Counted from the first letter of the stretch, positions 4,677-35,416 are shown. The stretch is 64,000 nt of DNA from Firmicutes bacterium UBA5389 (GCA_002409965.1 DHON01000092.1:31322-95321); one strand, 5' to 3'. Made by a program: numbers and translations. The notes: generated from the letters alone by a model not told the origin.

Positions 4677-5294
4677 CTACATAATCGCTCGGTACAGCGC
4701 TCCGATGATAGGCATGAGGATCCATGTCGACACAGGAGTAGCGATAAACACCAGAAGAATGATGTACGAGTATTGCTCCAGTTGATAGTAGAGCCTCGCT
4801 GCATTGCCCCTAAGCACCGCTGCCAGTATCTTGGAACCGTCCAGCGGCGGAATGGGCATCAGGTTGAACACGGCCAGCCCGAGGTTGATCCACACTCCCT
4901 GGTCGAGCGCCACCGCTACTAACTGGATTGTCCCTCCGCGAAACCCGTATGCACCGTATATGAACTTCACCATGATAGAGAAGAGCATGGCCAGAATCAA
5001 GTTGGCGCCCGGGCCTGCGAGGCTCACCATCACCATTCCGGCATCGCGGTTCTCGAAGTTCATGGGGTTAACCCTGACCGGCTTGGCCCATCCGAAGCGC
5101 CGGGTGAGCACCAGCGCGAGCAACCCCACGGGGTCAAGGTGAGCCAGGGGGTTGAGCGTGAGGCGCCCTTCCCACCGAGGAGTGCCGTCTCCCAGCTTCA
5201 CTGCAACGCGCGCGTGCGCGTATTCATGCACCGTCAGCGCAAACAGGAGGACCGGCAAGGTTATCAGGAAATACAGAATATCACTGCCGCTCAA
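4677..5294 (-). CDS. site-2 protease family (peptidase M50B) membrane metalloprotease
   Basis: HEYAHA (HExxH in a TM helix) and NLMPIPPLDG (LDG motif). TTG start at 5294 with RBS GGGGGTG. The track ORF extension to 5447 overlaps an upstream promoter and is judged non-coding. Confidence 0.7.
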   Translation of the reverse strand: MSGSDILYFLITLPVLLFALTVHEYAHARVAVKLGDGTPRWEGRLTLNPLAHLDPVGLLALVLTRRFGWAKPVRVNPMNFENRDAGMVMVSLAGPGANLILAMLFSIMVKFIYGAYGFRGGTIQLVAVALDQGVWINLGLAVFNLMPIPPLDGSKILAAVLRGNAARLYYQLEQYSYIILLVFIATPVSTWILMPIIGALYRAIM

Positions 5295-5315: not shown

Positions 5316-5326
5316 ATTATAGCATA
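5316..5326 (-). promoter_or_regulatory. TG-extended -10 element upstream of site-2 protease / trpS
   Basis: Minus strand: cTATGcTATAAT, overlapping the stop codon of the DUF2229 gene. About 20 nt upstream of the RBS GGGGGTG and the TTG start. Confidence 0.35.
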
Positions 5327-6447
5327 GACCACCGTCCGGTGGAAACTGACGGGCACGACCCCTCTCCCGCTTGGCGCCGCCGGGCTTGCAGCAGATCGCA
5401 AAACGCCTCCAGCCTGGTGTCGAATCCCACATCGGCGGTGTGCTCATCCACAGCGAGCGACATCACCGGAATACCTTCAGACTGACTAACCAGCGGAAGA
5501 ATGCTCTGGGCCACAATCTCGGGCATGCATGTCATGGGCGCTACGTGCAGTACGCCGGCCAGGCCCGACCGCGCCATATCGACTGAGCGCCCCACGCTTT
5601 CGACTCCATGGCCTCCCACGAAATGCCGCAGGTAGGGGCGGGCCCGCGACAGCATGTTGGACCTTGGCATCCGTCGGGCGATGTCGCCCACGATGTGCTC
5701 CTCGATCCAATGGGAGAATGTGATCGGCTGGACCACCTGCACCCCGAGTCGGCCCAGCTTCCTGCAGACATCCATGTTCACAGCGGGTTCCATCACCACA
5801 TAGATCTCGCCCACAACCCCCACGCGCATCGTGGGTCCGAGCCGTTCCTCTGTGCGGCATGCCACATCATGGAGCGTCTGCTCCACCGCGTATAGCACGG
5901 CATCGCACGTCTCGGCCGCGTCCAGCAGCGCAAGCCCCCGGTGTACGGCCGCGTCCACCTCTCCCGGTGCCGTTTCGCGCCAGCGCGCCATGTTCGCTGC
6001 CTGGTCCAGCGCATCCACTGCCCCAAATTTGGCCCACGCAAGCCGGCCTGCCTCTACTACCTGTCGCAGCGTGGCGCGGCGCTTGACCGTCCTCAGCGCT
6101 TGCACCAGCCCCCGAGGATCCCTCCGAGGAGGCTCCACCACTACGAGCTGCGCATTGCTTCCGGCTCTAGACAGCGCGTGTCGCTGAAGCTCGCAGTAGT
6201 ATCCCAGCCTGCAGGGCCCGATCCCTCCCACCATGAAGATGGTGTCGGCCCCCAGCTCCGCCGCCTCGATGAAGTTACCCACGGTCGCCTTGAGCGGCAG
6301 GCATGCCCCCTCAGGAGTGTACTTCGCCCCTATGGATAGTGTTCTCTTGGTGGTCGGAGGCGGGACCACCACGTCCAAACCCAATGAAGAGAAGAACGCC
6401 CTAACGGGTATCCACAGGTTGCCCAGATGTGGGAACGTAACGCGCAT
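5317..6447 (-). CDS. DUF2229-family protein (acyl-CoA dehydratase activase-related, CoA-enzyme-activase-associated domain)
   Basis: N-terminus VTFPHLGNLWIPVRAFFSSLGLDVVVPPP...GACLPLK matches the DUF2229 consensus (PRAL.YY...W..FF..LG.EVV...T.K...G...EACLP.K). 47-nt overlap with the upstream paralog. Confidence 0.6.
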   Translation of the reverse strand: MRVTFPHLGNLWIPVRAFFSSLGLDVVVPPPTTKRTLSIGAKYTPEGACLPLKATVGNFIEAAELGADTIFMVGGIGPCRLGYYCELQRHALSRAGSNAQLVVVEPPRRDPRGLVQALRTVKRRATLRQVVEAGRLAWAKFGAVDALDQAANMARWRETAPGEVDAAVHRGLALLDAAETCDAVLYAVEQTLHDVACRTEERLGPTMRVGVVGEIYVVMEPAVNMDVCRKLGRLGVQVVQPITFSHWIEEHIVGDIARRMPRSNMLSRARPYLRHFVGGHGVESVGRSVDMARSGLAGVLHVAPMTCMPEIVAQSILPLVSQSEGIPVMSLAVDEHTADVGFDTRLEAFCDLLQARRRQAGEGSCPSVSTGRWSML

Positions 6448-7375
6448 ACTCGCCGCTCCTCATGGCCACCGTGTCGATGAAGGCCTCCAGACGCGTAGTC
6501 AGCCCTGCCTCCGCCGAATGCTCGTCAATGTCGATGCACAGCAGAGGCATGTCGCCGTGCTTGCTCGCCTCATGTTGGATGACTTCGGCAACGAAGGATT
6601 CCGGACCGCAGCCGAAACTGGCGAGATGCACGATCCCGTCCACTTCGCCGGTTTCGAGCCACCTGTAGGCTGCGCCTACCAGGCGGCGGCCGTAGGTCCA
6701 GAAGAGGCGCTTGGCCCCGCGCCTGGCCCGCTCGCGCTCCCACCCGGCCGTTTCTCGATGAGAGTAGTCGCAGGCCTGTATGGGCGCGGCCCCCAGGCGG
6801 CGGATCTTGTCCACCAGGTCCAGGCTGATGTATGGGTCGCGCAGAGCGTAATTGTGCCCTAGGATGCCAATGCGAATGGCGCCGCTCGGCGCGGGCTCGG
6901 GCTCGGGCGAACCCCTCTTTGCGGCATCAATCGACTTGACCAGGGCGATCGCCGCGCGACCTCTGCCTACGCCCAGCGCTTGGCCGAGCGCCGCGACTTG
7001 CGATGCTATCCTGCTGAGCCCGGAAGACATATCGATGCACGGGTCCACCAGCCTGGGCGCGCCGCATACCCTGGCGCGAATCATGTCGGGCAATCCCATC
7101 AGCTTGGGGCAGATATACGCCCTGGGCTCAACGCTGACGAATCTGGGAACGAGCAACGCGTCTACCTTCCCTGAAAGGTAGGCGACATGTCCGAAGAACA
7201 CCTTGACAGGCAGGCAGGCCTCATCGACGCACAGCTCCAGCCCTGCCTGAAGGATCTCCCTATTGGTCACAGGAGAGAGCACAGGCCGAGCGCCGCACTG
7301 GCGCAGCAGCTCGAGCATGATTGGGCCGTACTCGTGGAACAGCAGCCCCCGCGGCACTCCTACCGCCAGGTTCAT
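6401..7375 (-). CDS. DUF2229-family protein (paralog of 5317..6447)
   Basis: GVPRGLLFHEYGPIMLELLRQCGARPVLSPVTNREILQAGLELCVDEACLPVKVFFGHV...VPRFVS...CPKLMGLPDM is the typical DUF2229 N-terminal region. Start ATG 7375 overlaps the spoVAE stop (ATGA). Confidence 0.6.
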   Translation of the reverse strand: MNLAVGVPRGLLFHEYGPIMLELLRQCGARPVLSPVTNREILQAGLELCVDEACLPVKVFFGHVAYLSGKVDALLVPRFVSVEPRAYICPKLMGLPDMIRARVCGAPRLVDPCIDMSSGLSRIASQVAALGQALGVGRGRAAIALVKSIDAAKRGSPEPEPAPSGAIRIGILGHNYALRDPYISLDLVDKIRRLGAAPIQACDYSHRETAGWERERARRGAKRLFWTYGRRLVGAAYRWLETGEVDGIVHLASFGCGPESFVAEVIQHEASKHGDMPLLCIDIDEHSAEAGLTTRLEAFIDTVAMRSGEYARYVPTSGQPVDTR

Positions 7376-7737
7376 GCCCTGGGGTTTGCGACCAGAGCGA
7401 TCAAGGCTGAGAAGAACACCGCAGTGGCCACTCCCAGCCCGGTGAATTCGAACGCCCCAGTGAAAAGCCCGATCACTCCGAGCCTCCTTGCCTCAAGTAA
7501 GGACCCGCGGGCGATGGAGTGCCCGAAACCCGAAACCGGCACCAGTGCTCCGGCGCCGGCGAAATCCACCAGTCGATCATATACTCCAAACCCTGACAGG
7601 ACGGCCCCTACCACAACGAACAGCACCAGCATGTGCGCTGGAGAAATCCGGGTCAGATCCAGCACGGCCTGGCCCACCGCGCATATGGCGCCTCCCACTA
7701 GGAATGCGATGACATAGTCCAGCGAAGACCCCTCCAT
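7372..7737 (-). CDS. spoVAE: stage V sporulation protein AE (SpoVAEb-like)
   Basis: DYVIAFLVGGAICAVGQ, like SpoVAEb. A small polytopic protein directly after spoVAD. Confidence 0.8.
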   Translation of the reverse strand: MEGSSLDYVIAFLVGGAICAVGQAVLDLTRISPAHMLVLFVVVGAVLSGFGVYDRLVDFAGAGALVPVSGFGHSIARGSLLEARRLGVIGLFTGAFEFTGLGVATAVFFSALIALVANPRA

Positions 7738-7748
7738 TCACGGGCGGC

Positions 7749-8756
7749 TCAAACCTGGAGCGTTACTGCATTGGCGATGCACGGTACTGACTCGCCCTGC
7801 TGCCAGGAGAGCGGCGACAGCAGGGCGCCCGTGGCAACGATCAGGGCACGCCTGATTTCGCCTTCGCACATCCTTTTCCATACGAAACCGTCCATTATCA
7901 GCGCCGAGCAGGCGCAGCCGCTGCCCCCCACGCCCGTTCCGCGCACACCCTGAAAGAGCATGACGCCGCCATCGGCGTAGTTGTCGCCCAGAGGCACTCC
8001 GCGGCGCTGCATCAGTTCGAGCAGAATCTGCGAGCCCACACTGCCCAGGTCGCCCGTGATTATCACATCGTAGAATCCGGGATCTCGCCCGGTATCGGCG
8101 AGGTGGCTGAAGATGGTCTCGGCCGCGGCGGGCGCCATGGCCGGGCCCATCTGGTTGGGGTCCTTGGTGCCCATGTCTATCACGCGCCCTACGGTAGCCT
8201 CGGTGATTTTCACCTTGCCCCCCGAACGCCCCACCAGCACCGCTCCTGCTCCGGTCGCAGTGTACTGCGACGTCGATTTCCGCTGGATGTTCAGCTCTAT
8301 CGGATATCTGAACTGCCGCTCGGCCGTCTGGTAGTGGCTGCTGGTCGCGGCAAGCGCAAGATCTGCGAACCCCGCGTCCACCAGGGCAGATGCCACGGTC
8401 AGGCTCTGGGCCGATGTGGAGCACGCGCCGTACACGCCGATGAACGGCATCCCTAGGTCTTCCGCGGTGAAACTGGCTGTGATCACCTGGTTGAGCAGAT
8501 CGCCGGCGATGAAGTAGTCCACCTGCTCGGGCTGGACGGCGGCCTGCGTCAAGGCTATCTTGACCGCGTCTCCCATGAACCGCCGTTCGGCCTTCTCAGC
8601 AGAGCGCTCGCCGAACATATCATCCGGGACCACTTCATCGAACCACCGGGCCATAGGCCCCCGGCTCTCCATGGGCCCGGCAACCGTTCCAGCAGACACA
8701 ATCACCGGGGGCGCGGCGAACCGGACGGTGCTTCTACCTATCCTTCTGGTGGCCAT
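7749..8756 (-). CDS. spoVAD: stage V sporulation protein AD
   Basis: PPVIVSAGTVAGPMEGRGP...GVYGACSTSAQSL... shows a thiolase-like fold with the SpoVAD-specific N-terminus. Confidence 0.9.
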   Translation of the reverse strand: MATRRIGRSTVRFAAPPVIVSAGTVAGPMESRGPMARWFDEVVPDDMFGERSAEKAERRFMGDAVKIALTQAAVQPEQVDYFIAGDLLNQVITASFTAEDLGMPFIGVYGACSTSAQSLTVASALVDAGFADLALAATSSHYQTAERQFRYPIELNIQRKSTSQYTATGAGAVLVGRSGGKVKITEATVGRVIDMGTKDPNQMGPAMAPAAAETIFSHLADTGRDPGFYDVIITGDLGSVGSQILLELMQRRGVPLGDNYADGGVMLFQGVRGTGVGGSGCACSALIMDGFVWKRMCEGEIRRALIVATGALLSPLSWQQGESVPCIANAVTLQV

Positions 8757-8759
8757 GGT

Positions 8760-9227
8760 TCACCCCCGGGAAAGCCATTTGATGAGCGCGACTGTCACTC
8801 CCGCCAATATCCCGTACACCAGAACGGGCCCGGCAATGATGAACATCTTGGCGCCCATGCCCAGGATGTAGCCTTCGCGCTTGAAGTCCATGGCAGCAGC
8901 AGCTACAGTGTTGGCAAACCCGGTTATGGGGACGGCGGCGCCGGCTCCGGCGAACTCGCCTATGTGGTGGTATACGGACAGCCCGGTCAGAACCACGCCT
9001 ATCAGGATCATTGTGGCCAGTGTAGGCGCCGTCGCCTCGTCGCCGGTCATGCCCGAGGCGATGAAGGCGTTCATGACTGCCTGTCCCAATGCGCATATTA
9101 GGCCTCCAACCACGAATGCCACTGCGATGTTCCGCGCCAGCTGGGGTCGGGGCACGATGGACGATGCCAGTTTCTGATACTTCGCTCTGTCGTCTGCCTT
9201 TTGCTTCTTAGCTCCGGGGCTCGCCAA
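8760..9227 (-). CDS. spoVAC: stage V sporulation protein AC
   Basis: IAVAFVVGGLICALGQ, like SpoVAC. Start set to TTG 9227 (RBS GGGGGGTG 9 nt upstream) because a sigmaG-type -10 ends about 4 nt before the ATG at 9248. That ATG is the alternative start. Confidence 0.8.
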   Translation of the reverse strand: MASPGAKKQKADDRAKYQKLASSIVPRPQLARNIAVAFVVGGLICALGQAVMNAFIASGMTGDEATAPTLATMILIGVVLTGLSVYHHIGEFAGAGAAVPITGFANTVAAAAMDFKREGYILGMGAKMFIIAGPVLVYGILAGVTVALIKWLSRG

Positions 9228-9252
9228 GGTGAAAGTCACCCCCCGCATGAGC

Positions 9253-9282
9253 TAGTATGCGACCGGCCGGGGGCTTTCATTC
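9253..9282 (-). promoter_or_regulatory. forespore sigmaG/sigmaF-type promoter for spoVAC-AD-AE(-DUF2229 x2)
   Basis: Minus strand: GAATG, exactly 18 bp, CATACTA (consensus GnATR-N18-CATnnTA). Overlaps the 3' end of sigF. Confidence 0.45.
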
Positions 9283-9960
9283 ACCAGCCATGCTGCGCCT
9301 GAGCGCGGCTAGTGCCGCCTTTTCTATTCGATGGACCTGCGGCTGTGAAATCCCAAGAAGGGTCGCCGCCTGAGCCTGTGTGCGCTCCTCGAAAAAGCGC
9401 ATCACAATGACCGCTCGCGCCGCCGGAGGCAGGCGTGAAAGAGCGGTCCGGAGCACGACCGAGTCGCACACGCTTTCGTCCGGCGCCAGCTCGCCCGGTA
9501 TTGCATCGATTAGCAGGCGGGCATCGGGCGCGCTGCATATGGGTTCATCGAGTGAACGTACTGGCGCATCGGAATCCATGGCGAAAGCGACATCGGCCGG
9601 AGAGATGGACAGGCGCGCGGCTATTTCCGACACGTTCGGATCGCGGCACAGCTCTGCGCTGAGCGCGCTGTGTGCCGCCCGGCACCTCTGGGCGAGTTCG
9701 CGAACGGGCCGTGGTATGTGAAGCGGGCCCAGACCTCGCAGGTATGCGCGGATCTCGGAGATCATCAGCGGAACAGCGTAGGTCGTGAAGGCCGTTTGGC
9801 GCGCAGGGTCGTAGGTGCGCACGGCTCGGACCAGGCCAACGCACGCGGCCTGGTGTAGATCGGCCAGTTCCGCCCGGCCGGCGAATCTCCTGGCGATAGA
9901 CATCGCCAACCCGGCGTGCCGACGGACATCGTCGTCATGCGGCCCGTTTTCCGATGGCAT
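9277..9960 (-). CDS. sigF: RNA polymerase sporulation sigma factor sigma-F
   Basis: Sigma-70 regions 2-4: FTTYAVPLMISEIRAYLR and a C-terminal HTH (QAQAATLLGISQPQVHRIEKAAL). Start ATG 9960 overlaps the spoIIAB stop (TAATG). The track ORF to 10302 is an out-of-frame upstream extension. Confidence 0.85.
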   Translation of the reverse strand: MPSENGPHDDDVRRHAGLAMSIARRFAGRAELADLHQAACVGLVRAVRTYDPARQTAFTTYAVPLMISEIRAYLRGLGPLHIPRPVRELAQRCRAAHSALSAELCRDPNVSEIAARLSISPADVAFAMDSDAPVRSLDEPICSAPDARLLIDAIPGELAPDESVCDSVVLRTALSRLPPAARAVIVMRFFEERTQAQAATLLGISQPQVHRIEKAALAALRRSMAGE

Positions 9961-10385
9961 TACTGATCGCCTGGTGTGAAGGACATCACCACTTTCGTGC
10001 CCTCTCCCGGCGACGAGGTCACGTCCATCGATTCCGACAGCGCCTCCATGAGGGTGAAGCCCATGCCCATCCTCTGAGGCGAACTGCTCACGCCGGGAGA
10101 GCGGGCCGCCAGGACATCCAAAATGCCAACGCCCTCGTCTTGCACCGAGATGGTGAAGGCATGATCCGAGGCCGACAGCATCATCAGCACTCTGCCCGGA
10201 CGCTCGGGATATGCGTGGACTATGCAGTTTGACACGGCTTCCGATACGGCAAGTTTGATGTCTTCCAGTTCCTCCAGGGTGAACCCGAGGCCTGCCGCCC
10301 AACTCGCTGCGGCGACGCGCGCGAAGCCCAGGTTACGAGCGACTGACTCGAACTCCACCCGCGCCCAGTTCACTTTGGGTTCCAT
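9960..10385 (-). CDS. spoIIAB: anti-sigma F factor (serine kinase)
   Basis: GHKL ATPase motifs: ELEDIKLAVSEAVSNCIVHAY and DEGVGI. Confidence 0.9.
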   Translation of the reverse strand: MEPKVNWARVEFESVARNLGFARVAAASWAAGLGFTLEELEDIKLAVSEAVSNCIVHAYPERPGRVLMMLSASDHAFTISVQDEGVGILDVLAARSPGVSSSPQRMGMGFTLMEALSESMDVTSSPGEGTKVVMSFTPGDQ

Positions 10386-10732
10386 TTCCTGACCTCCTCC
10401 CGCGCCGACAGCGCACTCTCGAGCGACACATATACCGGCATCAGCTTGGATACGCCGAGGAGATCGAGGGTTCGAGTCACACGCGCGCTGGGACCGGCAA
10501 TGGCCAAAACGGCGCCTCGGGCGAGAAGGCGCCTCTGCCTTCCGAACACCATGCCAATCCCCGAACTGTCGATGAAGCTGACTCTGTCCATTCTGAGTAT
10601 CACGCGCCGCGCGCCGCGGTTGGCGTCGATCAGCGAATCGATGGCCTGCGCCGCGCGGTCAGCGCAGGTCAGATCGAGCTCGCCCTGGAGGTCAACGATG
10701 AGATCGGATCCGCGGAGCACCCACTCGAACAA
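10370..10732 (-). CDS. spoIIAA: anti-sigma F factor antagonist (STAS domain)
   Basis: STAS fold with ...ILRMDRVSFIDSSGIGMVFG. TTG start with RBS GGAGGCGGGGG. Confidence 0.85.
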   Translation of the reverse strand: MFEWVLRGSDLIVDLQGELDLTCADRAAQAIDSLIDANRGARRVILRMDRVSFIDSSGIGMVFGRQRRLLARGAVLAIAGPSARVTRTLDLLGVSKLMPVYVSLESALSAREEVRKWNPK

Positions 10733-16387: not shown

Positions 16388-17590
16388 TCATTCCAGGAGC
16401 GCCCGCCCGTAGGTCCCTCCTCCTCCTGATCGAATGGCGAGCCTGCCTTCGCGCGCCATGACTATCCGAGCGGCTAGGCGCTCTCCCACCGCCTCGGCCA
16501 GCTGATCGCTGGTTGTGTGGTGAAGGACCGCCATTTCCGACCCGAAGGCCCGAATCAGCGCAGCAATGGCGACCGGCCCTACGCCCGGAACAAACGCCAA
16601 AGGCACCTGATGCCTGTATGGAGGGCGGTGGGCTGGGTGTCTCGGCTCTGGCCGATCGGCGATTTCGTCGATGCGGTCGGCCACTCCCCGCACCACGCGG
16701 GAACTGCCGCATTCTGGGCAGCCCGGCGCCGCGCCCGCTGCGGAAAAGCGGGCCTCACACACCTCGCACGCGCTCAAGTGGTACTTTCCCAGCCTGGGGT
16801 CGAGCCCGTAGTTGGCTGCCACGCGCCGACCATCGATGCGCGCTAGGGCCAGCGACACCTCGGCAAACGATGCCGATTCCATGCGCATCACGTTGTACTC
16901 CCGCCCCATCCGCGGAAGCGAGTGAGCATCAGAGTTCGAAAGAAATGTGTAGCTCGCAAGCTCCTCGATTCTGTCGGCCATCTGGGTATCGGCGGACAGT
17001 CCAAGTTCCACCCCGGCCACCAGCCGGCGGGATTCGTCGCCGAACACATCGGCGATCCGATGGGCGCACGTGCCGTACACGCTCTTGTGCGGGGTGAAAG
17101 CGTGCGCGATCACAAACAACCCGCCCGTATCGCTCGCAAGCTGGGCGACATGCCGCGGCAGAAGCCTGGTTCTTTGGGTGCTGAGGTCGATGTTGGAGGT
17201 ATGCCGGGCAAGTTCTCTCGCGAACTCGCGCACCTGGGCAAGCGTGGCGAAATACGCCACGTAGTGCGCGCTTCCCTTAGCGCCTTCGCGGGCATCGCCT
17301 CGGCAGGCAGCTTCCACCTCGGCGCCAGGGATGATTGTCGTGCGTCCCAGATATCTGAGACCGCCGCCTGGCGCCTCTTCCATCGCGCCTGATTCCAAGA
17401 GGCGGTCGATGTCGTCAAGCACGCGCCTGGAAGCGCAATCCACTACGCCTACAACATCGAGGCCCTTGTGCCGGGCGGCCTCGCGCGCGATGTTTTCCAA
17501 CGTGAGGTTGCGCGCGCCCGATACCTTGACCGGCCGCCCCTTGGAGTCTCTCCCGATGTGCACGTGAAGGTCGACGAAGTAGTCTTTCAT
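16388..17590 (-). CDS. endonuclease Q-like PHP-domain protein (TIGR00375 family)
   Basis: N-terminal MKDYFVDLHVHIG (PHP metal-binding HxH), internal His/Asp ligands, C-terminal Cys4 zinc finger (CEVCEARF...CPECG). No recognisable SD before the ATG. Confidence 0.6.
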   Translation of the reverse strand: MKDYFVDLHVHIGRDSKGRPVKVSGARNLTLENIAREAARHKGLDVVGVVDCASRRVLDDIDRLLESGAMEEAPGGGLRYLGRTTIIPGAEVEAACRGDAREGAKGSAHYVAYFATLAQVREFARELARHTSNIDLSTQRTRLLPRHVAQLASDTGGLFVIAHAFTPHKSVYGTCAHRIADVFGDESRRLVAGVELGLSADTQMADRIEELASYTFLSNSDAHSLPRMGREYNVMRMESASFAEVSLALARIDGRRVAANYGLDPRLGKYHLSACEVCEARFSAAGAAPGCPECGSSRVVRGVADRIDEIADRPEPRHPAHRPPYRHQVPLAFVPGVGPVAIAALIRAFGSEMAVLHHTTSDQLAEAVGERLAARIVMAREGRLAIRSGGGGTYGRALLE

Positions 17591-17620: not shown

Positions 17621-18694
17621 TCACTTCTCCTGACGCCTTGCGAGGGCTCTCGCGTAATTCCCCGCTGCTGCACACGTCAGGAAGAACTCCGGTTCCTCTT
17701 CGAACCCTCGGCCCATGGTGGAAAGCTCGATTCCCTGAGAGATCGCCCTTTCCACGCCCTCGCACCCCGTGGACGACACAAGCGTGTGCGTACCTCGGCA
17801 GATGGCATCAGCCAGCCGCGCGCGGGCCGAGCCTTGAAACCCCGGGTCCATGTCGGACGCCAGCACGCACGTTACAGAGGTGCAGCAGATATCGCGCAGT
17901 ACCGTCAAGGTGTGGTGGCTCACTACCTGATGTCTCAATCTGGGATCGGCCCGGGATAGACGCGGGACTATAATTGGCCGTCCTCCCATCCTGTTCACCG
18001 CATCCGCGATCCATCCTTGCTCCACGCCGGAGAACCCGTAGCGGGTGCCTGTTCCCACTATGCCTGGCCCCATTGCCACAACGGCGCAGTCACACCCGGC
18101 TACAGCTGTGGCTGCAACCAGTGCCGAGTGGACATTGACGGCCTCCATATCGCCGCCGAACGCGTGACCGGTTGTTATGGCGACATCGATGAGCCCCAAC
18201 TTCTTCAGCTGACGAACTGCCCGGCTCAGAGCAATCGGCAAGGCCGCCCCATCAGTCATGATATAGGCGGCCTTGCCTGCGAATCCACACAGAGTCGGCG
18301 CAAGCATGGAATGGAGCTCGCAGATGATCACGGGCATCCCGGCAAGGCCGGCGAAGGCGTCCACTGCCGCGTGACTTGCGGTGTCTTCCTCATAGCTCCC
18401 CGTGCATGCCTGCATCGGAGTGTATCTCATCTTCATGATGTGGCCGCGAGTTCGCCCACGGCGGCTGTCGCGACCGACCGCCCAGATCACGAAGTGGCGT
18501 CCGCCGCTTCCCAAATCCAGGTCGACGGCGGTGGTGTTCACGATCACCCAATCTCCAGGATACACAGGACCGGTCAGCGGCGGGTAGCATACAGCCGCGC
18601 ATTCCGCCCCGTCATCCACGGCCACCACCAACTCCTGAATACCAGGGGCTTCCAGTGTGACCCGCGCCACCCGTGCGACTCTCGCATTGATCAC
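17621..18694 (-). CDS. conserved hypothetical protein (DUF3866-like by recollection only)
   Basis: 357 aa, Gly-rich loops (GSGGRHFVIW, TTGHAFGGDMEAV, GPGIVGTGTRYGFSGVEQG). No motif I can assign. GTG start behind AGGAGGGGTG. Confidence 0.4.
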   Translation of the reverse strand: MINARVARVARVTLEAPGIQELVVAVDDGAECAAVCYPPLTGPVYPGDWVIVNTTAVDLDLGSGGRHFVIWAVGRDSRRGRTRGHIMKMRYTPMQACTGSYEEDTASHAAVDAFAGLAGMPVIICELHSMLAPTLCGFAGKAAYIMTDGAALPIALSRAVRQLKKLGLIDVAITTGHAFGGDMEAVNVHSALVAATAVAGCDCAVVAMGPGIVGTGTRYGFSGVEQGWIADAVNRMGGRPIIVPRLSRADPRLRHQVVSHHTLTVLRDICCTSVTCVLASDMDPGFQGSARARLADAICRGTHTLVSSTGCEGVERAISQGIELSTMGRGFEEEPEFFLTCAAAGNYARALARRQEK

Positions 18695-18772: not shown

Positions 18773-19312
18773 CTATGCTTCTACCAGCTGCGCTCCTCGA
18801 TTGATGGCCTCGATGTTGAGCGGTATCAGGTTATGCCTTCGCGCAGGCAAGACCTCCTTCAGACATTCGGCGACCGATTCAGAGGCGACCACATGTGTGG
18901 CCGCCAGATACGCGCCGAGAACGCACATGTTGGCTACTCTATCCGACCCGAGTTCCCGGGCTATGTCGACGGCAGGGACCGCGATGACCCTAATGTCGCT
19001 TCGCTCGGGTTTTCGGTCGATGAGCGAGCTATTGTAGATGAGCAATCCGCCCGGCCTCAGCATCGGCTCGAACCGGTCCATCGACGGCCTGTTCATCACG
19101 ATGGCCGTCGTGGGCTCAGTGACAATGGGCGATCCTATCGGCTCAGCCGATATCACGACCGAGCAGTTGGCCGTGCCCCCTCGCATTTCGGGCCCGTAGG
19201 CAGGTATCCACGAGACGTTCTTGCCCTCATGCATGCCTGCGTAGGACAGGAGTTGTCCTATAACCATTACTCCCTGACCGCCAAACCCTGCGATGGTCAG
19301 TTCCTCAGCCAT
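18773..19312 (-). CDS. vorC: 2-oxoacid:ferredoxin oxidoreductase gamma subunit
   Basis: MAEELTIAGFGGQGV is the POR/KOR gamma signature. ATG overlaps the beta-subunit stop. Confidence 0.85.
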   Translation of the reverse strand: MAEELTIAGFGGQGVMVIGQLLSYAGMHEGKNVSWIPAYGPEMRGGTANCSVVISAEPIGSPIVTEPTTAIVMNRPSMDRFEPMLRPGGLLIYNSSLIDRKPERSDIRVIAVPAVDIARELGSDRVANMCVLGAYLAATHVVASESVAECLKEVLPARRHNLIPLNIEAINRGAQLVEA

Positions 19313-20060
19313 TGCTAGCGCCTCCTTCCGGAGTGCGGAACTCGCCCAATGGATAGTAGGGTATCATGTTCTCCTCGAGCCATGTCATGGCTTCAATGGG
19401 AGCCATGCCCCAGTTGGTCGGGCAAGTGGAAAGGCATTCCACAAGCGAAAACCCCGCCCCCGCCAGCTGCGTGTCGAAGGCTTTTCGTATGGCCCGTTTC
19501 GCCCGCGCGACGTGCGCCGGCGATGACAGGGCCACGCGCGCAACGTAGGCAGCTCCGGGGATCGTCGACAGCATCTCGGCAATGCGGATGGGACTTCCAG
19601 CGTGCTCCAGCTTACGGCCTGCAGGAGACGTGGTGGTCTTCTGACCCACGAGCGTTGTGGGGGCCATCTGCCCTCCGGTCATACCGTAGATTGCATTGTT
19701 TATGAATATGACAGTGATGCGCTCTCCCCTCATGGCAGCGTGGACGATTTCAGCCGCGCCGATGGAGGCTAGGTCGCCATCGCCCTGGTAGGCGAAGACT
19801 ACGGCGTCAGGCAGAGCGCGCCGTATGCCGGTGGCGACTGCGGGCGCCCTGCCGTGGGAGGCCTGTTGGAAGTCGCAGTCGAAGTAATCGTAGGCAAACA
19901 CCGCGCACCCGACCGGGGCTACGCCCACGGTGCGGTCGCGCACGCCGAGTTCGTCGATGGCCTCTGCTACCAATTTGTGGGCAATTCCATGAGTGCAACC
20001 CGGGCAGTAGTGCGTTGCCCGCGGTTGCAGCGCTTTGGGAACAGCGTATACTTGCTTCAT
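19305..20060 (-). CDS. vorB: 2-oxoacid:ferredoxin oxidoreductase beta subunit (TPP-binding)
   Basis: HYCPGCTHG cysteine motif and a TPP-binding GDG...N region. ATGA overlap with the alpha subunit. Confidence 0.9.
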   Translation of the reverse strand: MKQVYAVPKALQPRATHYCPGCTHGIAHKLVAEAIDELGVRDRTVGVAPVGCAVFAYDYFDCDFQQASHGRAPAVATGIRRALPDAVVFAYQGDGDLASIGAAEIVHAAMRGERITVIFINNAIYGMTGGQMAPTTLVGQKTTTSPAGRKLEHAGSPIRIAEMLSTIPGAAYVARVALSSPAHVARAKRAIRKAFDTQLAGAGFSLVECLSTCPTNWGMAPIEAMTWLEENMIPYYPLGEFRTPEGGASNG

Positions 20061-21127
20061 TTTCCCACCTCCGCCTTGGCGATCTTGCGCGCCTCTTCAA
20101 CTATCGCCGCCGCCGTGGGCACGATCCCGCCCGGAGTGCCGTAGAAATGCACGGGTGCAGCCCCCAACGCGCCTAGCTTGACGTCTTCGACCATCTGGCC
20201 CATGCTCATCTCCACTGCGAGGAATGCCCGGGCAGTGCGAGCCACATCGGCTATGACCTGGTATGGGAAGGGCGACACCGTAATCGGCCGCACCAAGCCA
20301 ACGCGGAGGCCCTCCGAGCGCGCTCTGTCCATCGCCGACCTGCACACTCTTGCGGAAGTTCCGTAAGCAACCAACACGATGTCGGCGTCTTCAGTGTTGA
20401 CAGTTTCGCATCTCACCTCGTCAACCTGCGCCTGTTTGAACTTGGCCTGCAGTTTGTGGTTGTGACGGAGGAGGTCGTCAGGCTTGATGTAGATGGAGTT
20501 GATCAGCCTGGTGGCCCTTCCATCGCGCGCCCCGTTGGTAGCCCAGTCGGGAGTCGGAAGATCGCGCGGCGCGGGATCGGGAAACACCACCGGCTCCATC
20601 ATCTGGCCCAAAACCCCATCTCCCAGCATCATGACGGGCATCCGGTACTTCTCGGCCACGTCGAAGGCATGCATTGTGAGGTCCACCATCTCCTGTACCG
20701 AGGCAGGCGCGAATACAATGCAGTGGTAGTCGCCGTGTCCGCCGCCTTTGACGGCCTGGAAGTAATCGCTCTGGGCGGGCTGAATTCCGCCGAGCCCGGG
20801 TCCTCCACGCACCATGTTTACGATGAGGCACGGAAGCTCGGCGCCGGCGATGTACGATATCCCTTCCTGCTTGAGGCTGATTCCCGGGCTCGAAGACGAA
20901 GTCATCACGCGGACTCCGGCGCCGGCGGCGCCGTATACCATGTTGATGGCTGCGACTTCGCTCTCGGCCTGCAAGAACACCCCGCCCACCTCAGGAAGCC
21001 TTCGCGACATGTACTCCGGGATCTCGTTCTGCGGCGTGATCGGATACCCGAAGAAGAAACGGCATCCGGCCCTGACAGCGGCCTCTGCAACGGCTTCGTT
21101 GCCCTTGAATAGTTTGCGTTCTGCCAT
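20057..21127 (-). CDS. vorA: 2-oxoacid:ferredoxin oxidoreductase alpha subunit
   Basis: MAERKLFKGNEAVAEAAVRAGCRFFFGYPITPQNEI is the canonical N-terminus of the alpha subunit. Confidence 0.9.
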   Translation of the reverse strand: MAERKLFKGNEAVAEAAVRAGCRFFFGYPITPQNEIPEYMSRRLPEVGGVFLQAESEVAAINMVYGAAGAGVRVMTSSSSPGISLKQEGISYIAGAELPCLIVNMVRGGPGLGGIQPAQSDYFQAVKGGGHGDYHCIVFAPASVQEMVDLTMHAFDVAEKYRMPVMMLGDGVLGQMMEPVVFPDPAPRDLPTPDWATNGARDGRATRLINSIYIKPDDLLRHNHKLQAKFKQAQVDEVRCETVNTEDADIVLVAYGTSARVCRSAMDRARSEGLRVGLVRPITVSPFPYQVIADVARTARAFLAVEMSMGQMVEDVKLGALGAAPVHFYGTPGGIVPTAAAIVEEARKIAKAEVGK

Positions 21128-21409: not shown

Positions 21410-22480
21410 TTACGATATTCTCTTGACTTGCTCGACGCCGGCCAATGCACGGAGGGCCGCTCTGGCCAAGGCCAGCATCTCCTCCTCGCCCGGGTACACC
21501 ATCACCCTGGCGATGAACTTGACCCGGGCAGTAATCCACTCCACCAGCATCTTGGAGTTCGCAGCGCCTCCAGTGACGACGATGGCATCGACTTCGCCCG
21601 ACATGGCGCACGCAACTCGGCCTATCTCCTTGGCCACCTGGTAAGCCATTCCCTCGTAGCACAGCTTGGCTTGGCTATCGCCTTCCGCGATGCGTTTCTC
21701 AACGTCCAGCAGCGAGTTGGTGCCCAGATAGGCTACTAGCCCACCCTGCCCGGTGATCTTCCTTCGCATTTCGCGTTCGGTGTAGTCGCCGCTGAAACAG
21801 AGCCTGATCACACCGGTGTTGGGCAGGGTCCCTGAGCGCTCGGGCGAATACGGGCCTTCCCCGTCGAGGGCATTGCTCACCTCCGCCACTCGGCCCTTCC
21901 GGTGCCCGCCCACGCTGATCCCGCCCCCGAGGTGTACAACAATGAGGTTACAGTCATGATACTCGCGCCCCAGCGCGCTTGCGGCTTGCCGAGCCACGGC
22001 TTTCTGGTTGAGCGCGTGAAAAACGCTCCTTCGCTCAATCTCGGGCAGGCCTGTGTAGCGGGCAACGTCGTCCAGCTCATCGGTGGTGACTGGATCCGCG
22101 ATATAAGCGGGGATTCTGGCGGCCCTGGCGATGTCGCGCGCTATGAGGCCGCCTAAGCTGGACGCATGGTTCCATCCATGCTCGTACAGCGCCTCGACTA
22201 TCGCATCGTCGACTTCGTAGACACCGCCTTCTACAGGAGGCAGAACCCCGCCGCGTCCTATTACCGCGGAGAGCTGATTCATGGCGAAACCGGCTCTGGC
22301 CAAAAACTCGACTACTGCCTCCTTCCTCATATCGAATTGGTCGAATATTCGTGAAAATGCCGCGATTGCTGCAGCATCGTGCCTCAGTGTCTCAGAGGCC
22401 GCAACCTGCTCGCCCTGGAAAACGGCGACTTTCGTGGACGTAGAGCCGGGATTGATCACAAGCAGCCTTGGGTCGCGCAC
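21410..22480 (-). CDS. buk: butyrate (branched-chain fatty acid) kinase
   Basis: RLLVINPGSTSTKVAVF and ASKHG-fold motifs. GTG start behind GGGGAGG. Confidence 0.9.
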   Translation of the reverse strand: MRDPRLLVINPGSTSTKVAVFQGEQVAASETLRHDAAAIAAFSRIFDQFDMRKEAVVEFLARAGFAMNQLSAVIGRGGVLPPVEGGVYEVDDAIVEALYEHGWNHASSLGGLIARDIARAARIPAYIADPVTTDELDDVARYTGLPEIERRSVFHALNQKAVARQAASALGREYHDCNLIVVHLGGGISVGGHRKGRVAEVSNALDGEGPYSPERSGTLPNTGVIRLCFSGDYTEREMRRKITGQGGLVAYLGTNSLLDVEKRIAEGDSQAKLCYEGMAYQVAKEIGRVACAMSGEVDAIVVTGGAANSKMLVEWITARVKFIARVMVYPGEEEMLALARAALRALAGVEQVKRIS

Positions 22481-22495
22481 ATGAGCCGCCTCCCC

Positions 22496-23395
22496 TCACT
22501 CCGATGTCACTATGGCGCAGGCCAGCGAGAGCAGCCTAGCTCTGGGAGAGTCTGATCTAGATGTAAGGACGATCGGCGCCCGGGCCCCTGCCACCAGTGC
22601 CGCGGCTTCGATGTCGCCGAAGTAAACCATGGTTTTGTAGATAGCGTTGCCTGCAGCGATGTCGGGCGCAAGAATGATATCAGCCTTGCCGGCTACGGGC
22701 CCTCCTACTCCTTTGTGCTTCGCGGACTCCGCCGACACCGCGTTATCGAGGCCAAGCGGACCATCGATGATGCACCCTTTGATCTGCCCCCTGTCGCCCA
22801 TCTTGGCCAAGGCCGCCGCTTCGATGGTCTCAGGCATCGCCGGGTTTACCACCTCGACCGCGGCTACGCACGCCACTTTGGGCGTCGCATTTCCCAGCTT
22901 GTGCGCCACACCAACCGCGTTGCCAATGATCTGCGCCTTTTCCTCCAACGTGGGAGCGACTACCATGGCTCCGTCAGTCAGGTAGAAGAACCTATCGTAC
23001 CGGGGAGACTTGAACACCGCCACATGGCTCAAGAGCTTGCCGGTGCGCAGGCCCACCTCCCGGTCGAGCACAGCCTTGAGGAACCCGGATGTGGGTATGA
23101 GACCCTTCATCAGTATGCCTGCCTTGCCCGAACTCACCAGGCTGACGGCGAGCCGCGCCGCGTTCGGAGCATCCGGCTCGTCCAGAATGTCCACTCTGGA
23201 GACATCAAGGCCCACATCGGAAGCCACATCCGCTATCCGACGGGCATCGCCCACCAGTGCGAAATCGCCCATTCCAACGTCGATCGCCATCTTGACTGCT
23301 TCGAGTACCTCGCGGTCTTGCGCCGCCGCTACGGCTACCCGCGCCGACTTGTGTCCCTTGGCGCACGCCACAACTTGATCGAAGGTTGTCAGCAT
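22496..23395 (-). CDS. ptb: phosphate butyryltransferase
   Basis: Pta/Ptb fold, ...AGILMKGLIPTS.... RBS AAGGAGGCG. Confidence 0.9.
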   Translation of the reverse strand: MLTTFDQVVACAKGHKSARVAVAAAQDREVLEAVKMAIDVGMGDFALVGDARRIADVASDVGLDVSRVDILDEPDAPNAARLAVSLVSSGKAGILMKGLIPTSGFLKAVLDREVGLRTGKLLSHVAVFKSPRYDRFFYLTDGAMVVAPTLEEKAQIIGNAVGVAHKLGNATPKVACVAAVEVVNPAMPETIEAAALAKMGDRGQIKGCIIDGPLGLDNAVSAESAKHKGVGGPVAGKADIILAPDIAAGNAIYKTMVYFGDIEAAALVAGARAPIVLTSRSDSPRARLLSLACAIVTSE

Positions 23396-23436
23396 CGTAT
23401 TCGCCTCCTTGGATGTGAGTAGTACAACCTCATGTG

Positions 23437-24552
23437 CTACTGCATCGGTCGAGCGCCGTATTGGCCCGCCTGTTCCTGGCCTTCGAGTACCAGCATGGCG
23501 CTGACGGCCAGGGCCTCCATCTCATTCTCTCCGGGAAACACCATGATCGGCGCGATGAACTCGCAGCGGCGAGTCACATCGTCAACGAGTCGTCTCCAGG
23601 CGGCCAGCCCGCCGGTGAGCGCAACGGCGTCGACCTCTCCTGAAAGCACCGTGGCCATTGCTCCAATTTCTTTGGCGATCTGATACGCCATGGCCTGCGC
23701 GACCTCGAGAGCGTGCGCGTCGCCCTCCTGGATCATCCTCTCGACGTCTTGAGCATCGGTGGTACCTAAGTGGCCGCAAAGCCCCGCTTTGCGTGTAATC
23801 TTGCTGATCAGCTCGGCCTGCGTATACCGGCCGGAGTAGCAGAGCGACACCAGATCCGCCATGGGCAAGCTGCCGGCGCGTTCCGGCGAGAAAGGCCCTT
23901 CATCGTCGGCACCGTTCGCGTCAACCATCAATCCGGCCTTGACGGGGCATATCGATATTCCGCTGCCCAGATGAGCCACGATCACGTTGACATCGCCCAG
24001 AGCGCGTCCGAGCTCGCTCGCGGCTTTGCGGGCAGTGCTTCGGATCGACAGCGCATGCAACCGCGACTGGCGCGGCGCCTCCGGAAGGCCCGAAAGTCTG
24101 GCAAGGGGTTCGAACTCGTCGACAGTGATGGGGTCTGCGAAATACGATGGGATTCCCAGAGGCTGGGCGATGGCGTAGGCTATGGGAGGGGACAGGTTCG
24201 CGGCGTGCTCAGTGGCTGGTCTGCAGCGCAAGTCGTCGAGCATATCCTGGCTGATCATATACGTTCCGCCGCGCATTGCGCTGGGTGCGCCGCCCCGGGA
24301 TACTACTGCGTCGAGTGTTCGCGGGTCGCAATTGCCGGCCTCGAGGCTGGCCAGGACGGCCTTTCGCCTGTACTCCAGCTGATCCCAGATCCCTGCGAAG
24401 TCGGCGAGCTCGTTAACGGGATGTCGAATGCTTTCGGAGTAGACCGGCTCGCGGCCCTGGAAGATGGCGATTTTGGTGGAGGTGGAGCCTGTGTTGACGA
24501 CAAGTACCTTACGCTCGGGTTGCTTAGTGCCTAACGCTCTCACAGAACACAA
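23437..24552 (-). CDS. buk2: butyrate kinase paralog
   Basis: KVLVVNTGSTSTKIAIF...EGPFSPERAGSLP is paralogous to 21410..22480. TTG/GTG start. The N-terminus is uncertain by about 3 codons. Confidence 0.85.
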   Translation of the reverse strand: MCSVRALGTKQPERKVLVVNTGSTSTKIAIFQGREPVYSESIRHPVNELADFAGIWDQLEYRRKAVLASLEAGNCDPRTLDAVVSRGGAPSAMRGGTYMISQDMLDDLRCRPATEHAANLSPPIAYAIAQPLGIPSYFADPITVDEFEPLARLSGLPEAPRQSRLHALSIRSTARKAASELGRALGDVNVIVAHLGSGISICPVKAGLMVDANGADDEGPFSPERAGSLPMADLVSLCYSGRYTQAELISKITRKAGLCGHLGTTDAQDVERMIQEGDAHALEVAQAMAYQIAKEIGAMATVLSGEVDAVALTGGLAAWRRLVDDVTRRCEFIAPIMVFPGENEMEALAVSAMLVLEGQEQAGQYGARPMQ

Positions 24553-33129: not shown

Positions 33130-35328
33130 CTATCTGCGCCGTCGGTCACCCCCGCCATCTCGCCTGGGCCCGGCGCTCCCTCGCTGGAAGCCCGCTCGCG
33201 GCGGCCTCGGACCCCGGTCGAAAGGCTGCTCCACATAGCCTTCCGGCTTGGGCAGCAGGTCCTTGCGCGACAGGTTGATCCTGCCCTGGCTGTCGATCTC
33301 GGTCACCCTCACCGTCACCTCATCGCCTATGTTCACAACGTCTTCCACAGTTGCAACCCGCTCATAGGCAAGCTGAGAGATGTGCACGAGGCCTTCTTTG
33401 CCCGGGAGCACTTCCACGAAAGCGCCGAACGGCATTATCCGCGTTACCTTGCCTGTATAGACTTCGCCCTGCTCAGGATCGTGCACCAGCTCGTTGATCA
33501 TGGCCACCGCGCGTTTGGCGTCGTCTTCATCGATCGATGCAATGAACACGCGACCATCGTCTTCGATGTCGATCTTGGTGTTGGTCAGCTCGATGATCTT
33601 GCGTATCATCTTGCCCCCAGGTCCGATCACATCGCGGATCTTGTCGGGGTCAATGCTTATCGTGAGCATCCTGGGCGCGTAGGGCGACAGCTCAGGACGG
33701 GGCTCCGGCAGAGCCTCCAGCATCTTGCCGAGGATGAACATCCTGCCTCGATTCGCCTGCTCCAGCGCCGACCGGAGTATGTCGCGGGAGATGCCCTTGA
33801 CCTTCATGTCCATCTGTATCGCCGTCACGCCGTCGCGTGTGCCTGCCACCTTGAAGTCCATGTCGCCGAGATGGTCTTCCATGCCCTGGATGTCAGTGAG
33901 TATGGCGAGTCTGTCGTCGTGCTTGACCAAACCCATCGCTACGCCAGCTACCGGCTTTTTGATCGGCACGCCCGCGTCCATAAGCGAGAGTGTGCTGCCG
34001 CAGATGGATGCCTGGCTGCTCGAGCCGTTGGATTCAACGACCTCCGACACCAGCCTGATCGTATATGGAAACTCCTCTTCAGAGGGGATAACGGGCAGAA
34101 GAGCGCGCTCAGCCAGCGCACCGTGGCCAATCTCGCGTCTCCCCGGGCCCCGGATGGGACGCACCTCGCCAACGCTGTACGGCGGGAAGTTGTAGTGGTG
34201 TATGTAGCGCTTCGACTCCTCTAGGCCCAGGTCGTCGATGATCTGCATTTCGCCGACGGCTCCCAGCGTGCATGTGGTGATCACCTGAGTCTGCCCGCGC
34301 CGGAACATGGCCGACCCGTGCACACGGGGAAGCAGGCCCACAGCGCAGTCTATCGGGCGGATTTCGTCCATTGCCCGGCCGTCCGGTCGAATGTGCTCTG
34401 CCGTGATCATCTTGCGCACTATCTGCTTGAGCATGCTGTCCAGCGCCGCGTCTATGCACTTGTGAGGCGTGTCTTCGCCCATTTCCTCCTCGAAATGCGC
34501 ATGGGTCGCCTGTCGGACGGCGCTGGTCAGTTTCTCGCGGGCCAGTTTGTCGGGGTTGCGCACGGCCGCATCCAGCTGCGCGTGGGCGAACACCTCAATC
34601 TTCGCAGCAAGCTCCGGATCGGGTTCGAGTAACTTGAACTCCCGCTTGGGCACGCCGACCGCTGCGATGATCTCGTCCTGAAAAGCGATTATCTCCTTGA
34701 TCGTGTCGTGCCCGCGCATGATCGCCTCCAACACCTGCTCCTCGGAGACCTCGTTGGCCGCGGCCTCCACCATGAGCACTGCATCGCGGGTACCTGCGAC
34801 CACCAACGACAGGCTCGACTTATCCAGCTCTTCCGCGCTGGGGTTGATCACGAATTCGTCGTCCACGATGCCGACCTTGACGCCTGCGATGGGGCCGTCG
34901 AAGGGCACATCGGAGATGCCGAGCGCAATGGACGCTCCGTTCATCGCCAGCACCGATGGTTCCACCCCAGGCTCAACGGACATCACTACCGCGACTACCT
35001 GGACATCGTTTCTGAAACCCTCCGGAAACAGCGGCCGTATCGGCCTGTCGATCTGCCGCCCCGCCAGGATCGCCGCCTCGCTCGGGCGGCCTTCGCGCTT
35101 GATGAACCCTCCAGGGATCTTGCCCACTGAATAGAGCCTTTCCTCGTAGTCCACCAAGAGCGGGAAGAAGTCTATGCCCTCCCTCGGCTCCTTGGAAGCA
35201 GTCGCGGTGACCAGGACCACTGTATCGCCGTACCGTACCAGCGCAGACCCCCCGGCCTGCCGGGCGACGTAGCCGGTTTCAACCGACAGCTTCCTTCCTG
35301 CCACGACTGTCTCAAACGTCTGATGCAT
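33130..35328 (-). CDS. pnp: polynucleotide phosphorylase with a basic RG-rich C-terminal tail
   Basis: Two RNase PH domains, KH ([10 protein letters not shown]) and S1 ([19 protein letters not shown]). The tail is [27 protein letters not shown]. Confidence 0.95.
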
Positions 35329-35365
35329 TCAGTCGCCTACCTCCTCAATGTGTAGCGCATCTTGC

Positions 35366-35404: not shown

Positions 35405-35416
35405 GTAGCACTTCCC

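Follow-up and report, generated by a model that had tools for sequence, protein, structure and literature searches.

In a 64 kb stretch of DNA (hereafter the window, the whole stretch that was analyzed) from the uncultured Bacillota metagenome-assembled genome (MAG) Firmicutes bacterium UBA5389 (GCA_002409965.1, DHON01000092.1:31322-95321; ~62% GC), two adjacent genes for DUF2229 proteins follow directly on the spoVAC, spoVAD and spoVAE genes of the spoVA sporulation operon. We find it probable that this pair encodes subunits of a DUF2229-type, oxygen-sensitive and ATP-dependent [4Fe-4S] enzyme, and that the module to which the pair belongs forms the distal end of the spoVA operon and is expressed in the forespore as a reductase or dehydratase. 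The enzyme superfamily, the DUF2229 domain, the spoVA operon and its control by sigmaG are all known. What appears to be new is the linkage among them, which would define a split, sporulation-linked branch of the PlsA/Ger-HAD-BCR family (HAD, 2-hydroxyacyl-CoA dehydratase; BCR, benzoyl-CoA reductase). The searchable literature yielded no description of a DUF2229/BcrAD module in, or linked to, spoVA operons.

Dipicolinate (DPA) is loaded and released by SpoVA, which acts as the central machine in both processes, and most work on the spoVA operon concerns Bacillus and a few Clostridium species that lack the genes described here. The DUF2229 domain is by now partly characterised. It serves as the 'reduction' domain in two enzymes, the plasmalogen synthase PlsA/PlsR and the glycerol ester reductase Ger (PMC13159169, PMC12838417, PMC9702350). 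Both turn lipid esters into ethers, and no other DUF2229 enzyme is characterised (PMC13159169, PMC12838417).

Two DUF2229 genes extend the predicted spoVA transcription unit

The genes of interest and those surrounding them all lie on the minus strand of the window and are read in the order spoIIAA-spoIIAB-sigF-spoVAC-spoVAD-spoVAE-DUF2229 gene 1-DUF2229 gene 2-M50 gene-trpS-scpA-scpB, with assignments confirmed by Pfam and NCBIfam. The spoVAC gene (8760-9227, counted from a probable TTG start; PF03862, TIGR02838) is followed by spoVAD (7749-8756; PF07451, E 1.3e-135; TIGR02845, 456 bits) and by spoVAE, which encodes a SpoVAEb-type membrane subunit (7372-7737; PF03862; TIGR02839, 138 bits). 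DUF2229 gene 1 (6401-7375; 324 amino acids, aa) and DUF2229 gene 2 (5317-6447; 376 aa) come next, and we refer to their products as DUFa (alpha) and DUFb (beta).

A perfect sigmaG/sigmaF-type promoter read from the sequence, GAATG-N18-CATACTA (9282-9253), precedes spoVAC, with a -35 element that overlaps the stop codon of sigF. This site is the single match to the pattern GHATR-N18-CATNHTA on either strand of the window (chance expectation 0.23 per window), and the motif is present at an equal distance in the related loci L001, L004 and L005. Although the longest open reading frame (ORF) for spoVAC reaches back to an ATG at 9248, this codon cannot be the true start because it lies only 4 nt past the -10 element. 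The true start is likely the TTG at 9227, which is preceded by GGGGGGTGA and yields the M-A-S-P N-terminus seen in SpoVAC homologues.

The spoVAE stop codon and the start codon of DUF2229 gene 1 overlap as ATGA (7372-7375), and the two DUF2229 genes overlap by 47 nt (6401-6447). Gene 2 has an AGGAG Shine-Dalgarno sequence 8 nt upstream, and no usable Shine-Dalgarno sequence of its own was found for gene 1 in the window sequence. A terminator-like hairpin was found in the window neither between spoVAE and the pair nor past the pair, and the segment from spoVAC to the pair showed no sigma70-like promoter. The window thus contains a set of genes on one strand, with a sigmaG-type promoter, with overlapping or tightly spaced ORFs, and with neither a terminator nor a promoter in between, and the same arrangement is kept in L001 and L084. 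These features suggest that the five genes are most likely carried on one forespore transcript that begins at the spoVAC promoter, and that translation of the DUF2229 pair most likely proceeds by coupling at the ATGA and 47-nt overlaps. The original prediction had named this promoter, both overlaps and the DUF2229 identity of both ORFs, and these points are borne out. Its reading of the five genes as one apparent forespore transcript is supported by the sequence, in which no terminator or independent promoter that might separate spoVAE from the pair was found. Only its term 'translationally fused' requires amendment. The overlaps support coupling, but the ORFs are separate, and so 'translationally coupled' is the better description.

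DUFa and DUFb resemble the subunits of radical [4Fe-4S] enzymes

Both proteins exceed the gathering score of PF09989 (120.8 bits for DUFa and 52.0 bits for DUFb, against a cutoff of 29.4), the Pfam family DUF2229, 'CoA enzyme activase uncharacterised domain'. Both also give weak C-terminal Pfam matches to HGD-D, the D-component of 2-hydroxyglutaryl-CoA dehydratase, and the two proteins are paralogous, with 29% identity across the C-terminal half. Homologues of DUFa are numerous (1083 representatives at 50% identity with E<=1e-30). Some of these (P0241, P0247, P0248, P0254, P0264, P0269, P0279, P0334 and P0378) are 690-770 aa in length with three matched stretches, and appear to be natural alpha-beta fusions. 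Such candidate fusions support the notion that DUFa and DUFb act as one unit.

A search of PDB sequences with DUFa returned only chance matches to thioredoxins (E ~0.5). AlphaFold2 models, built from 21-sequence alignments, are confident and have a predicted local distance difference test (pLDDT) score of 87.9 and a predicted template modeling (pTM) score of 0.86 for DUFa, and corresponding values of 84.9 and 0.85 for DUFb. When compared to the PDB with Foldseek, the top 19 matches for DUFa (nearly all of its significant neighbors), and 15 of 15 matches at E<=1e-3 for DUFb, are to HadBC, DCCP, BzdNO or MbdON. HadBC is (R)-2-hydroxyisocaproyl-CoA dehydratase, DCCP is the double-cubane cluster protein, and BzdNO and MbdON are the catalytic subunits of benzoyl-CoA and 3-methylbenzoyl-CoA reductase, respectively. 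E values reach ~3e-9, template modeling (TM) scores range from 0.5 to 0.58, and identity is 11-16%. Judged from these models, the relationship to solved structures is detectable by fold only.

Three cysteines are invariant in each subunit in the 21-sequence alignments (C54, C89 and C256 in DUFa; C49, C79 and C307 in DUFb, along with an FVGGHG motif). None of the family's invariant residues, the six cysteines among them, is missing from the window pair. By analogy with what is known of the family, a pattern of three cysteines per subunit is that expected for the ligation of an Fe-S cluster.

Further support comes from the characterised DUF2229 enzymes. PlsA/PlsR is the enzyme of Clostridium perfringens, with a fused single-gene form in Listeria and Enterococcus, and Ger is Tmari_0479 of Thermotoga maritima. 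As a proxy for PlsA/Ger sequences we used a 1475-aa fused PlsA/PlsR-type protein from Listeria monocytogenes, taken from a record mislabelled as a plasmid, which carries two BcrAD_BadFG domains in addition to DUF2229. DUFa aligns with residues 670-959 of this protein (24% identity, E 9e-16) and DUFb with residues 1030-1244 (25% identity, E 2e-9), such that the order of the window pair matches the Red1-Red2 order in the Listeria fusion and the cysteine motifs coincide. Because the alignments are collinear and the cysteine motifs match, the pair can be viewed as distantly related to the Red1-Red2 half of PlsA-type enzymes, but split into two genes. Taken together, sequence and fold comparisons place DUFa and DUFb as predicted paralogous catalytic subunits (alpha and beta, like Red1 and Red2) of the HAD/BCR/DCCP/PlsA-Ger superfamily of [4Fe-4S] radical enzymes.

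Linkage to spoVA is conserved among relatives

A pattern scan in which each GTDB species was represented by one genome recovered at least 576 relatives, and the best 80 loci were analyzed by searching their six-frame ORFs with the window proteins, a Calderihabitans ATPase and a Calderihabitans GerA/SpoVAF protein. These 80 loci are the best-scoring DUFa matches, and therefore describe an orthologous clade rather than all DUF2229 proteins. All belong to spore-forming lineages of the Bacillota or to unclassified metagenome bins, and the carriers include Moorella/Neomoorella, Syntrophomonas, Syntrophaceticus, Thermincola, Tepidanaerobacter, Thermovenabulum, Dethiobacter, Desulfitobacteriaceae, Peptococcia, Halonatronum, Orenia, other Halanaerobiales and many Bacillota MAGs.

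A spoVA gene resides within 1.3 kb upstream of DUFa in 63 of the 72 loci with at least 1.5 kb of upstream sequence, and a BcrAD_BadFG ATPase gene lies within 400 nt past DUFb in 58 of the 69 loci with at least 1.3 kb of downstream sequence. The usual layout, on one strand, is spoIIAA-spoIIAB-sigF-(dodecin)-spoVAC-AD-AEb-(AEa)-(AF)-DUFa-DUFb-ATPase, often followed by a gene for a TrpB-like pyridoxal phosphate (PLP) enzyme and lysA and, farther on, by M50-trpS-scpAB. The dodecin-like small gene between sigF and spoVAC occurs in several relatives and in Calderihabitans (L003). The distance from the last spoVA gene to DUFa is mostly negative or less than 100 nt, and larger gaps often hold SpoVAEa (PF14097). 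Overlaps of 4, 29 and 47 nt between DUFa and DUFb recur among the relatives. The closest relatives of the window, GCA_964471415.1 (80% identity) and GCA_034926675.1 (53%), repeat its arrangement with the ATGA and 47-nt overlaps and without an ATPase gene. The synteny of spoVA with two DUF2229 genes, proposed earlier as a check on the linkage, is therefore widespread among the related loci.

The genes past the module were also inspected. A TrpB-like PLP enzyme of ~450 aa and lysA lie there in L011 (12374-15219) and in 17-20 other loci. Adjacency of spoVA and lysA is known from B. subtilis, where lysA is not a sporulation gene, and the layout in these loci matches that adjacency, with the module placed precisely between the two. 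The window lineage has neither the TrpB-like gene nor lysA nor the ATPase gene in the interval from DUFb to the M50 gene. No module-specific fourth gene was found downstream in the related loci, which carry only lysA, the TrpB-like PLP enzyme, a DHH-CBS protein and housekeeping genes at this place.

Some modules are arranged differently. In Monoglobus pectinilyticus (L088, NZ_OY725744.1, 6001-12625) an alpha-beta-ATPase module lies away from spoVA and is followed by a gene for a TSCPD-domain protein, dapF, the LL-diaminopimelate aminotransferase gene (dapL) and the sporulation gene ylmC/ymxH. Loci L074 and L080 carry paralogous clusters (DUFb-ATPase-DUFa-DUFb-DUFa) without spoVA genes, and form a separate deep branch of the family.

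The module includes an ATPase that the window lineage lacks

The ATPase encoded by the related loci matches MbdQ, HadI and HgdC at E values of 3e-41 to 1e-36. MbdQ is its best PDB match (3e-41), and the matches to HadI and HgdC (1e-36 to 1e-37) align the cluster cysteines. Residues C128 and C167 align with the conserved cysteine motifs of MbdQ and HadI, and presumably correspond to the cluster-bridging Cys127 and Cys166 of HgdC. In Calderihabitans maritimus the ATPase gene (L003:10002-10976) lies directly past DUFb. This ATPase and those from 61 other loci share a fully conserved C-terminal CxxCxxxC...C motif (residues 285-311 in L003) and a conserved Cys193. A similar sequence, CNLCSNTC, occurs between the ATPase and reductase parts of the fused Listeria protein. 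The motif may represent an extra metal or cluster site that is specific to DUF2229-type systems.

No BcrAD_BadFG ATPase was found in the window, where neither a phmmer search with a module ATPase nor a hidden Markov model (HMM) of 62 module ATPases produced a match at E<=10 among the six-frame ORFs. The original prediction had noted this absence correctly, and had called the pair an orphan. At the level of the family the term does not apply, given the ATPase gene that usually follows DUFb, and so the absence is a trait of the lineage rather than of the family. In a neighbor-joining tree of DUFb, loci without an ATPase gene fall into at least five clades (window/L001; L033/L056/L060; L039; L011; L057/L073), which argues that the gene has been lost or relocated repeatedly, and in L070 it is found 2.8 kb away. 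The comparison of loci thus identifies the missing ATPase of the window lineage as a derived state. Dehydratase-type members of this family need only catalytic activation, and an unlinked activator would be tolerated.

Forespore-type promoter motifs occur upstream of spoVAC and of uncoupled modules

Among 51 related loci, 11 have the strict sigmaG motif before spoVAC, between -49 and -56 relative to the start codon, against a background of 0.005 per 200 nt. With a relaxed motif (GHATR-N17/18-NANAHTA) the number rises to 25-26 of 51. These counts are pattern-dependent lower bounds, because a relaxed -10 element was needed to go from the former number to the latter. Eight loci (L006, L007, L016, L028, L031, L036, L039 and L072) have a GC-rich hairpin directly upstream of spoVAC, and the spoVA promoter arrangement therefore differs between lineages.

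The relaxed motif is also found directly upstream of DUFa in 12 of the 40 loci in which a gap of at least 40 nt separates this gene from its upstream neighbor, frequently between -59 and -68. On the opposite strand these segments yield no match (0/40), and shuffled segments yield a mean of 0.8 and a maximum of 5. Other control regions are likewise nearly devoid of the motif, including those upstream of spoIIAA (0/46), trpS (0/18), spoVAD (0/59), the ATPase gene (1/69) and the M50 gene (2/29). Thus, a module that is not translationally coupled to spoVA often has a predicted forespore-type promoter of its own, and these motifs independently support a functional link to the forespore program.

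Alternative explanations

Several observations weigh against our proposal. No NCBIfam model matches either DUF2229 protein, and the identity to the Listeria protein is only ~24%, and thus a lipid substrate is an analogy rather than an orthology call. The ratio of nonsynonymous to synonymous substitution rates (dN/dS) between the window and its 80%-identity relative is 0.29 and 0.19 for the two DUF2229 genes, which is 2-3 times that of spoVAD (0.09) or trpS (0.08). The window has no partner ATPase gene, the module lies away from spoVA in 9 of 72 loci and in Monoglobus, and the whole dacF-spoIIA-spoVA-...-lysA-...-M50-trpS-scpAB region is syntenic across taxa, such that some of the linkage could reflect inherited gene order rather than function. 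Finally, co-transcription and forespore expression are predictions from sequence.

These points bear on three other explanations for the pair. If the genes encoded a vegetative, fermentation-type dehydratase or reductase for acyl-CoA chemistry that merely resides in a conserved block, then read-through from spoVAC would be incidental. Conservation of the dacF-to-scpB block across distant relatives would fit this explanation, as would the modules located elsewhere, and lysA, which is not a sporulation gene, lies past spoVA in many loci and in B. subtilis. However, the ATGA overlap with spoVAE is kept at 53-80% identity and gene 1 lacks a usable Shine-Dalgarno sequence of its own, the window offers no sigma70-like promoter between spoVAC and the pair, forespore-type motifs precede DUFa in 12 of 40 gapped loci versus 0-2 for the housekeeping controls, and the best 80 matches are confined to spore-forming lineages or unclassified bins. 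We therefore regard incidental metabolic neighbors as unlikely. The pair might instead be a decaying remnant, nearly a pseudogene, that lost its function in the window lineage along with the adjacent ATPase. Although the lack of an ATPase gene within 64 kb and the elevated dN/dS would be expected in this case, both ORFs are intact with all invariant residues, values of 0.19-0.29 indicate that the pair is under purifying selection in the window lineage, and the ATPase-less arrangement persists in the 80% and 53% relatives and in at least four other clades. Decay is thus very improbable, and pseudogenisation was rejected on the basis of the intact ORFs, the invariant residues and the purifying selection.

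It is also conceivable that the enzyme acts on DPA or on an intermediate of lysine or diaminopimelate (DAP) metabolism, in the forespore or at germination, for example by a Birch-type reduction of the pyridine ring. Such chemistry would explain the attachment to the DPA channel, and would suit the position of the module between the channel genes and lysA with a TrpB-like PLP enzyme nearby (~17-20 loci), the proximity of the Monoglobus module to dapF and the LL-DAP aminotransferase gene, and the fold shared with the dearomatising reductases BzdNO and MbdON. Yet the spoVA-lysA adjacency is ancestral, and is present in Bacillus without the module. Moreover, the module is not accompanied by any conserved CoA ligase gene or other gene of a pathway, and the closest sequence family is the DUF2229/PlsA type rather than Bcr/Bzd. 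DPA is also made in the mother cell and then imported (PMC3789822). On balance, a role in DPA or DAP chemistry seems quite unlikely to us.

A model for the spoVA-linked module

According to our preferred reading, that of a forespore-expressed DUF2229-type reductase or dehydratase, the module would form the distal end of the spoVA operon in many anaerobic endospore-formers (spoVAC-AD-AEb-(AEa)-(AF)-alpha-beta-ATPase, then lysA). The alpha-beta dimer would carry cysteine-ligated [4Fe-4S] clusters, and an HgdC-like ATPase dimer would use ATP hydrolysis to drive a low-potential electron into these clusters. The charged dimer would then act on a substrate in the developing spore, by reduction or radical dehydration, while DPA is being loaded or afterwards. 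Because the window lineage has no ATPase gene at this locus, the activator must come from elsewhere or be replaced, and so it might be supplied in trans from another site in the genome, or another electron donor might serve.

Since the closest enzymes of known function reduce membrane glycerolipids at the sn-1 ester, our leading, if tentative, guess for the substrate is an acyl ester of a forespore membrane glycerolipid, which by analogy would be converted to an alkyl or alkenyl ether. On a more speculative level, the module could be a forespore-specific lipid ester reductase that remodels the inner membrane by introducing ether or vinyl-ether lipids as dipicolinate is loaded by SpoVA or, in a variant of this idea, could process DPA or a related ring compound. 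Either version would reveal an unrecognised enzymatic step of endospore maturation shared by many Clostridia-type lineages. Were a membrane lipid the substrate, the module would contribute to the impermeability and lipid immobility of the spore inner membrane in anaerobic spore-formers, and would bear on the long-standing question of how this membrane attains its impermeability.

Many anaerobic spore-formers (Moorella, Syntrophomonas, Thermincola, Tepidanaerobacter, Halanaerobiales) thus appear to append an ATP-driven Fe-S radical enzyme to spoVA. Sporulation biology gains a testable candidate for a maturation reaction, and the DUF2229/PlsA-Ger family gains a second biological context. The repeated loss of the adjacent ATPase gene also raises the question of how the enzyme is activated when no partner is encoded beside it.

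Other features of the region

Directly upstream of spoVAC lies the spoIIA operon, with spoIIAA (10370-10732; Pfam STAS), spoIIAB (9960-10385; HATPase_c_2) and sigF (9277-9960; Sigma70 r2/r3/r4). About 23 nt past DUF2229 gene 2 is a gene for an M50-family, site-2 protease-like protein (4677-5294; PF02163), which fills the position where most relatives have the ATPase gene and is the same neighbor in L001 and L084. A sigma70-like promoter, TTTCCA-18-(TG)TATAAT (5316-5345, minus strand; 10 of 12 matches, with an extended -10 TG), is located inside the 3' end (the last 30 nt) of DUF2229 gene 2 and probably serves the M50 peptidase gene, trpS and scpAB. Given its location just upstream of these genes, a vegetative promoter is probably embedded in the 3' end of the sporulation operon.

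Elsewhere in the window, a 400-aa ORF beside spoIIM (16388-17590, minus strand) has good coding statistics and no Pfam match, and L084, the relative at 80% identity, has a likewise unannotated 400-aa gene at this position. A phosphate acetyl/butyryl-transferase gene lies between two genes of the acetate/butyrate-kinase family (21410-24552, minus strand), and this cluster is adjoined by three genes for 2-oxoacid:ferredoxin oxidoreductase subunits (18773-21127) and a DUF3866 gene (17621-18694). Between 24000 and 34000 the GC content falls from ~0.62 to 0.53-0.57, and returns to ~0.60-0.63 from pnp-rpsO (33130-35698) onward. The stretch may have been acquired laterally; it holds panB, panE, a branched-chain amino-acid ABC transporter and a gene of the AAT family (acyl-CoA:6-APA acyltransferase-like). 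Among PLSDB records, NZ_LR134399.1, NZ_CP030101.1, NZ_CP154629.1 and NZ_CP084075.1 are chromosome-sized (2.1-2.9 Mb), or 394 kb with core chromosomal genes, and plasmid labels in that collection are not to be trusted.

Comparison with known systems

The window operon shares the spoVAC-AD-AE core and a sigmaG-type promoter with the spoVA operons of B. subtilis and C. difficile. Unlike the window and its relatives, the described operons (spoVAA-AF followed by lysA in B. subtilis, and that of C. difficile) carry no DUF2229 or BcrAD genes. The sigmaG-dependent operon of C. difficile consists only of spoVAC-AD-AE (CD0773-0775; PMC3789822), and the DUF2229 extension is therefore not universal.

Among enzymes, the module shares with the class I benzoyl-CoA reductases BzdNOPQ/MbdONPQ and with DCCP/DCCP-R the fold of the catalytic subunits and the principle of ATP-driven, low-potential electron transfer. 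It differs in that Bcr uses two different ATPase subunits and the catalytic protein of DCCP is homodimeric, neither system is linked to sporulation, and identity is 11-16%. Like HadBC/HadI and HgdAB/HgdC, the spoVA-linked module combines an alpha-beta dimer with a separate ATPase activator, and HadBC (3o3m/3o3n) is the best structural match of both subunits (E ~1e-9, TM ~0.5). Unlike the 2-hydroxyacyl-CoA dehydratases, to which they are ~12% identical, the window proteins have only a weak and C-terminal PF06050 match and no acyl-CoA pathway context, and their DUF2229-specific N-terminal half is absent from the dehydratases.

PlsA/PlsR and Ger share the building blocks of the module, as these enzymes likewise combine two tandem DUF2229(+HGD-D) reduction halves with BcrAD_BadFG activation domains. 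In Ger, two BcrAD_BadFG domains precede the DUF2229/HGD-D repeats (PMC13159169). In the spoVA-linked module, unlike this B-B-D-H-D-H fusion, each part has its own gene, and the two reductase halves precede an ATPase with a single domain. The PlsA/Ger architecture, paired or fused, has two activation domains, compared with one single-domain ATPase gene in the relatives and none in the window. The module further differs from PlsA/Ger in its identity of ~24-25% (Listeria proxy) and in its linkage to the spoVA sporulation operon.

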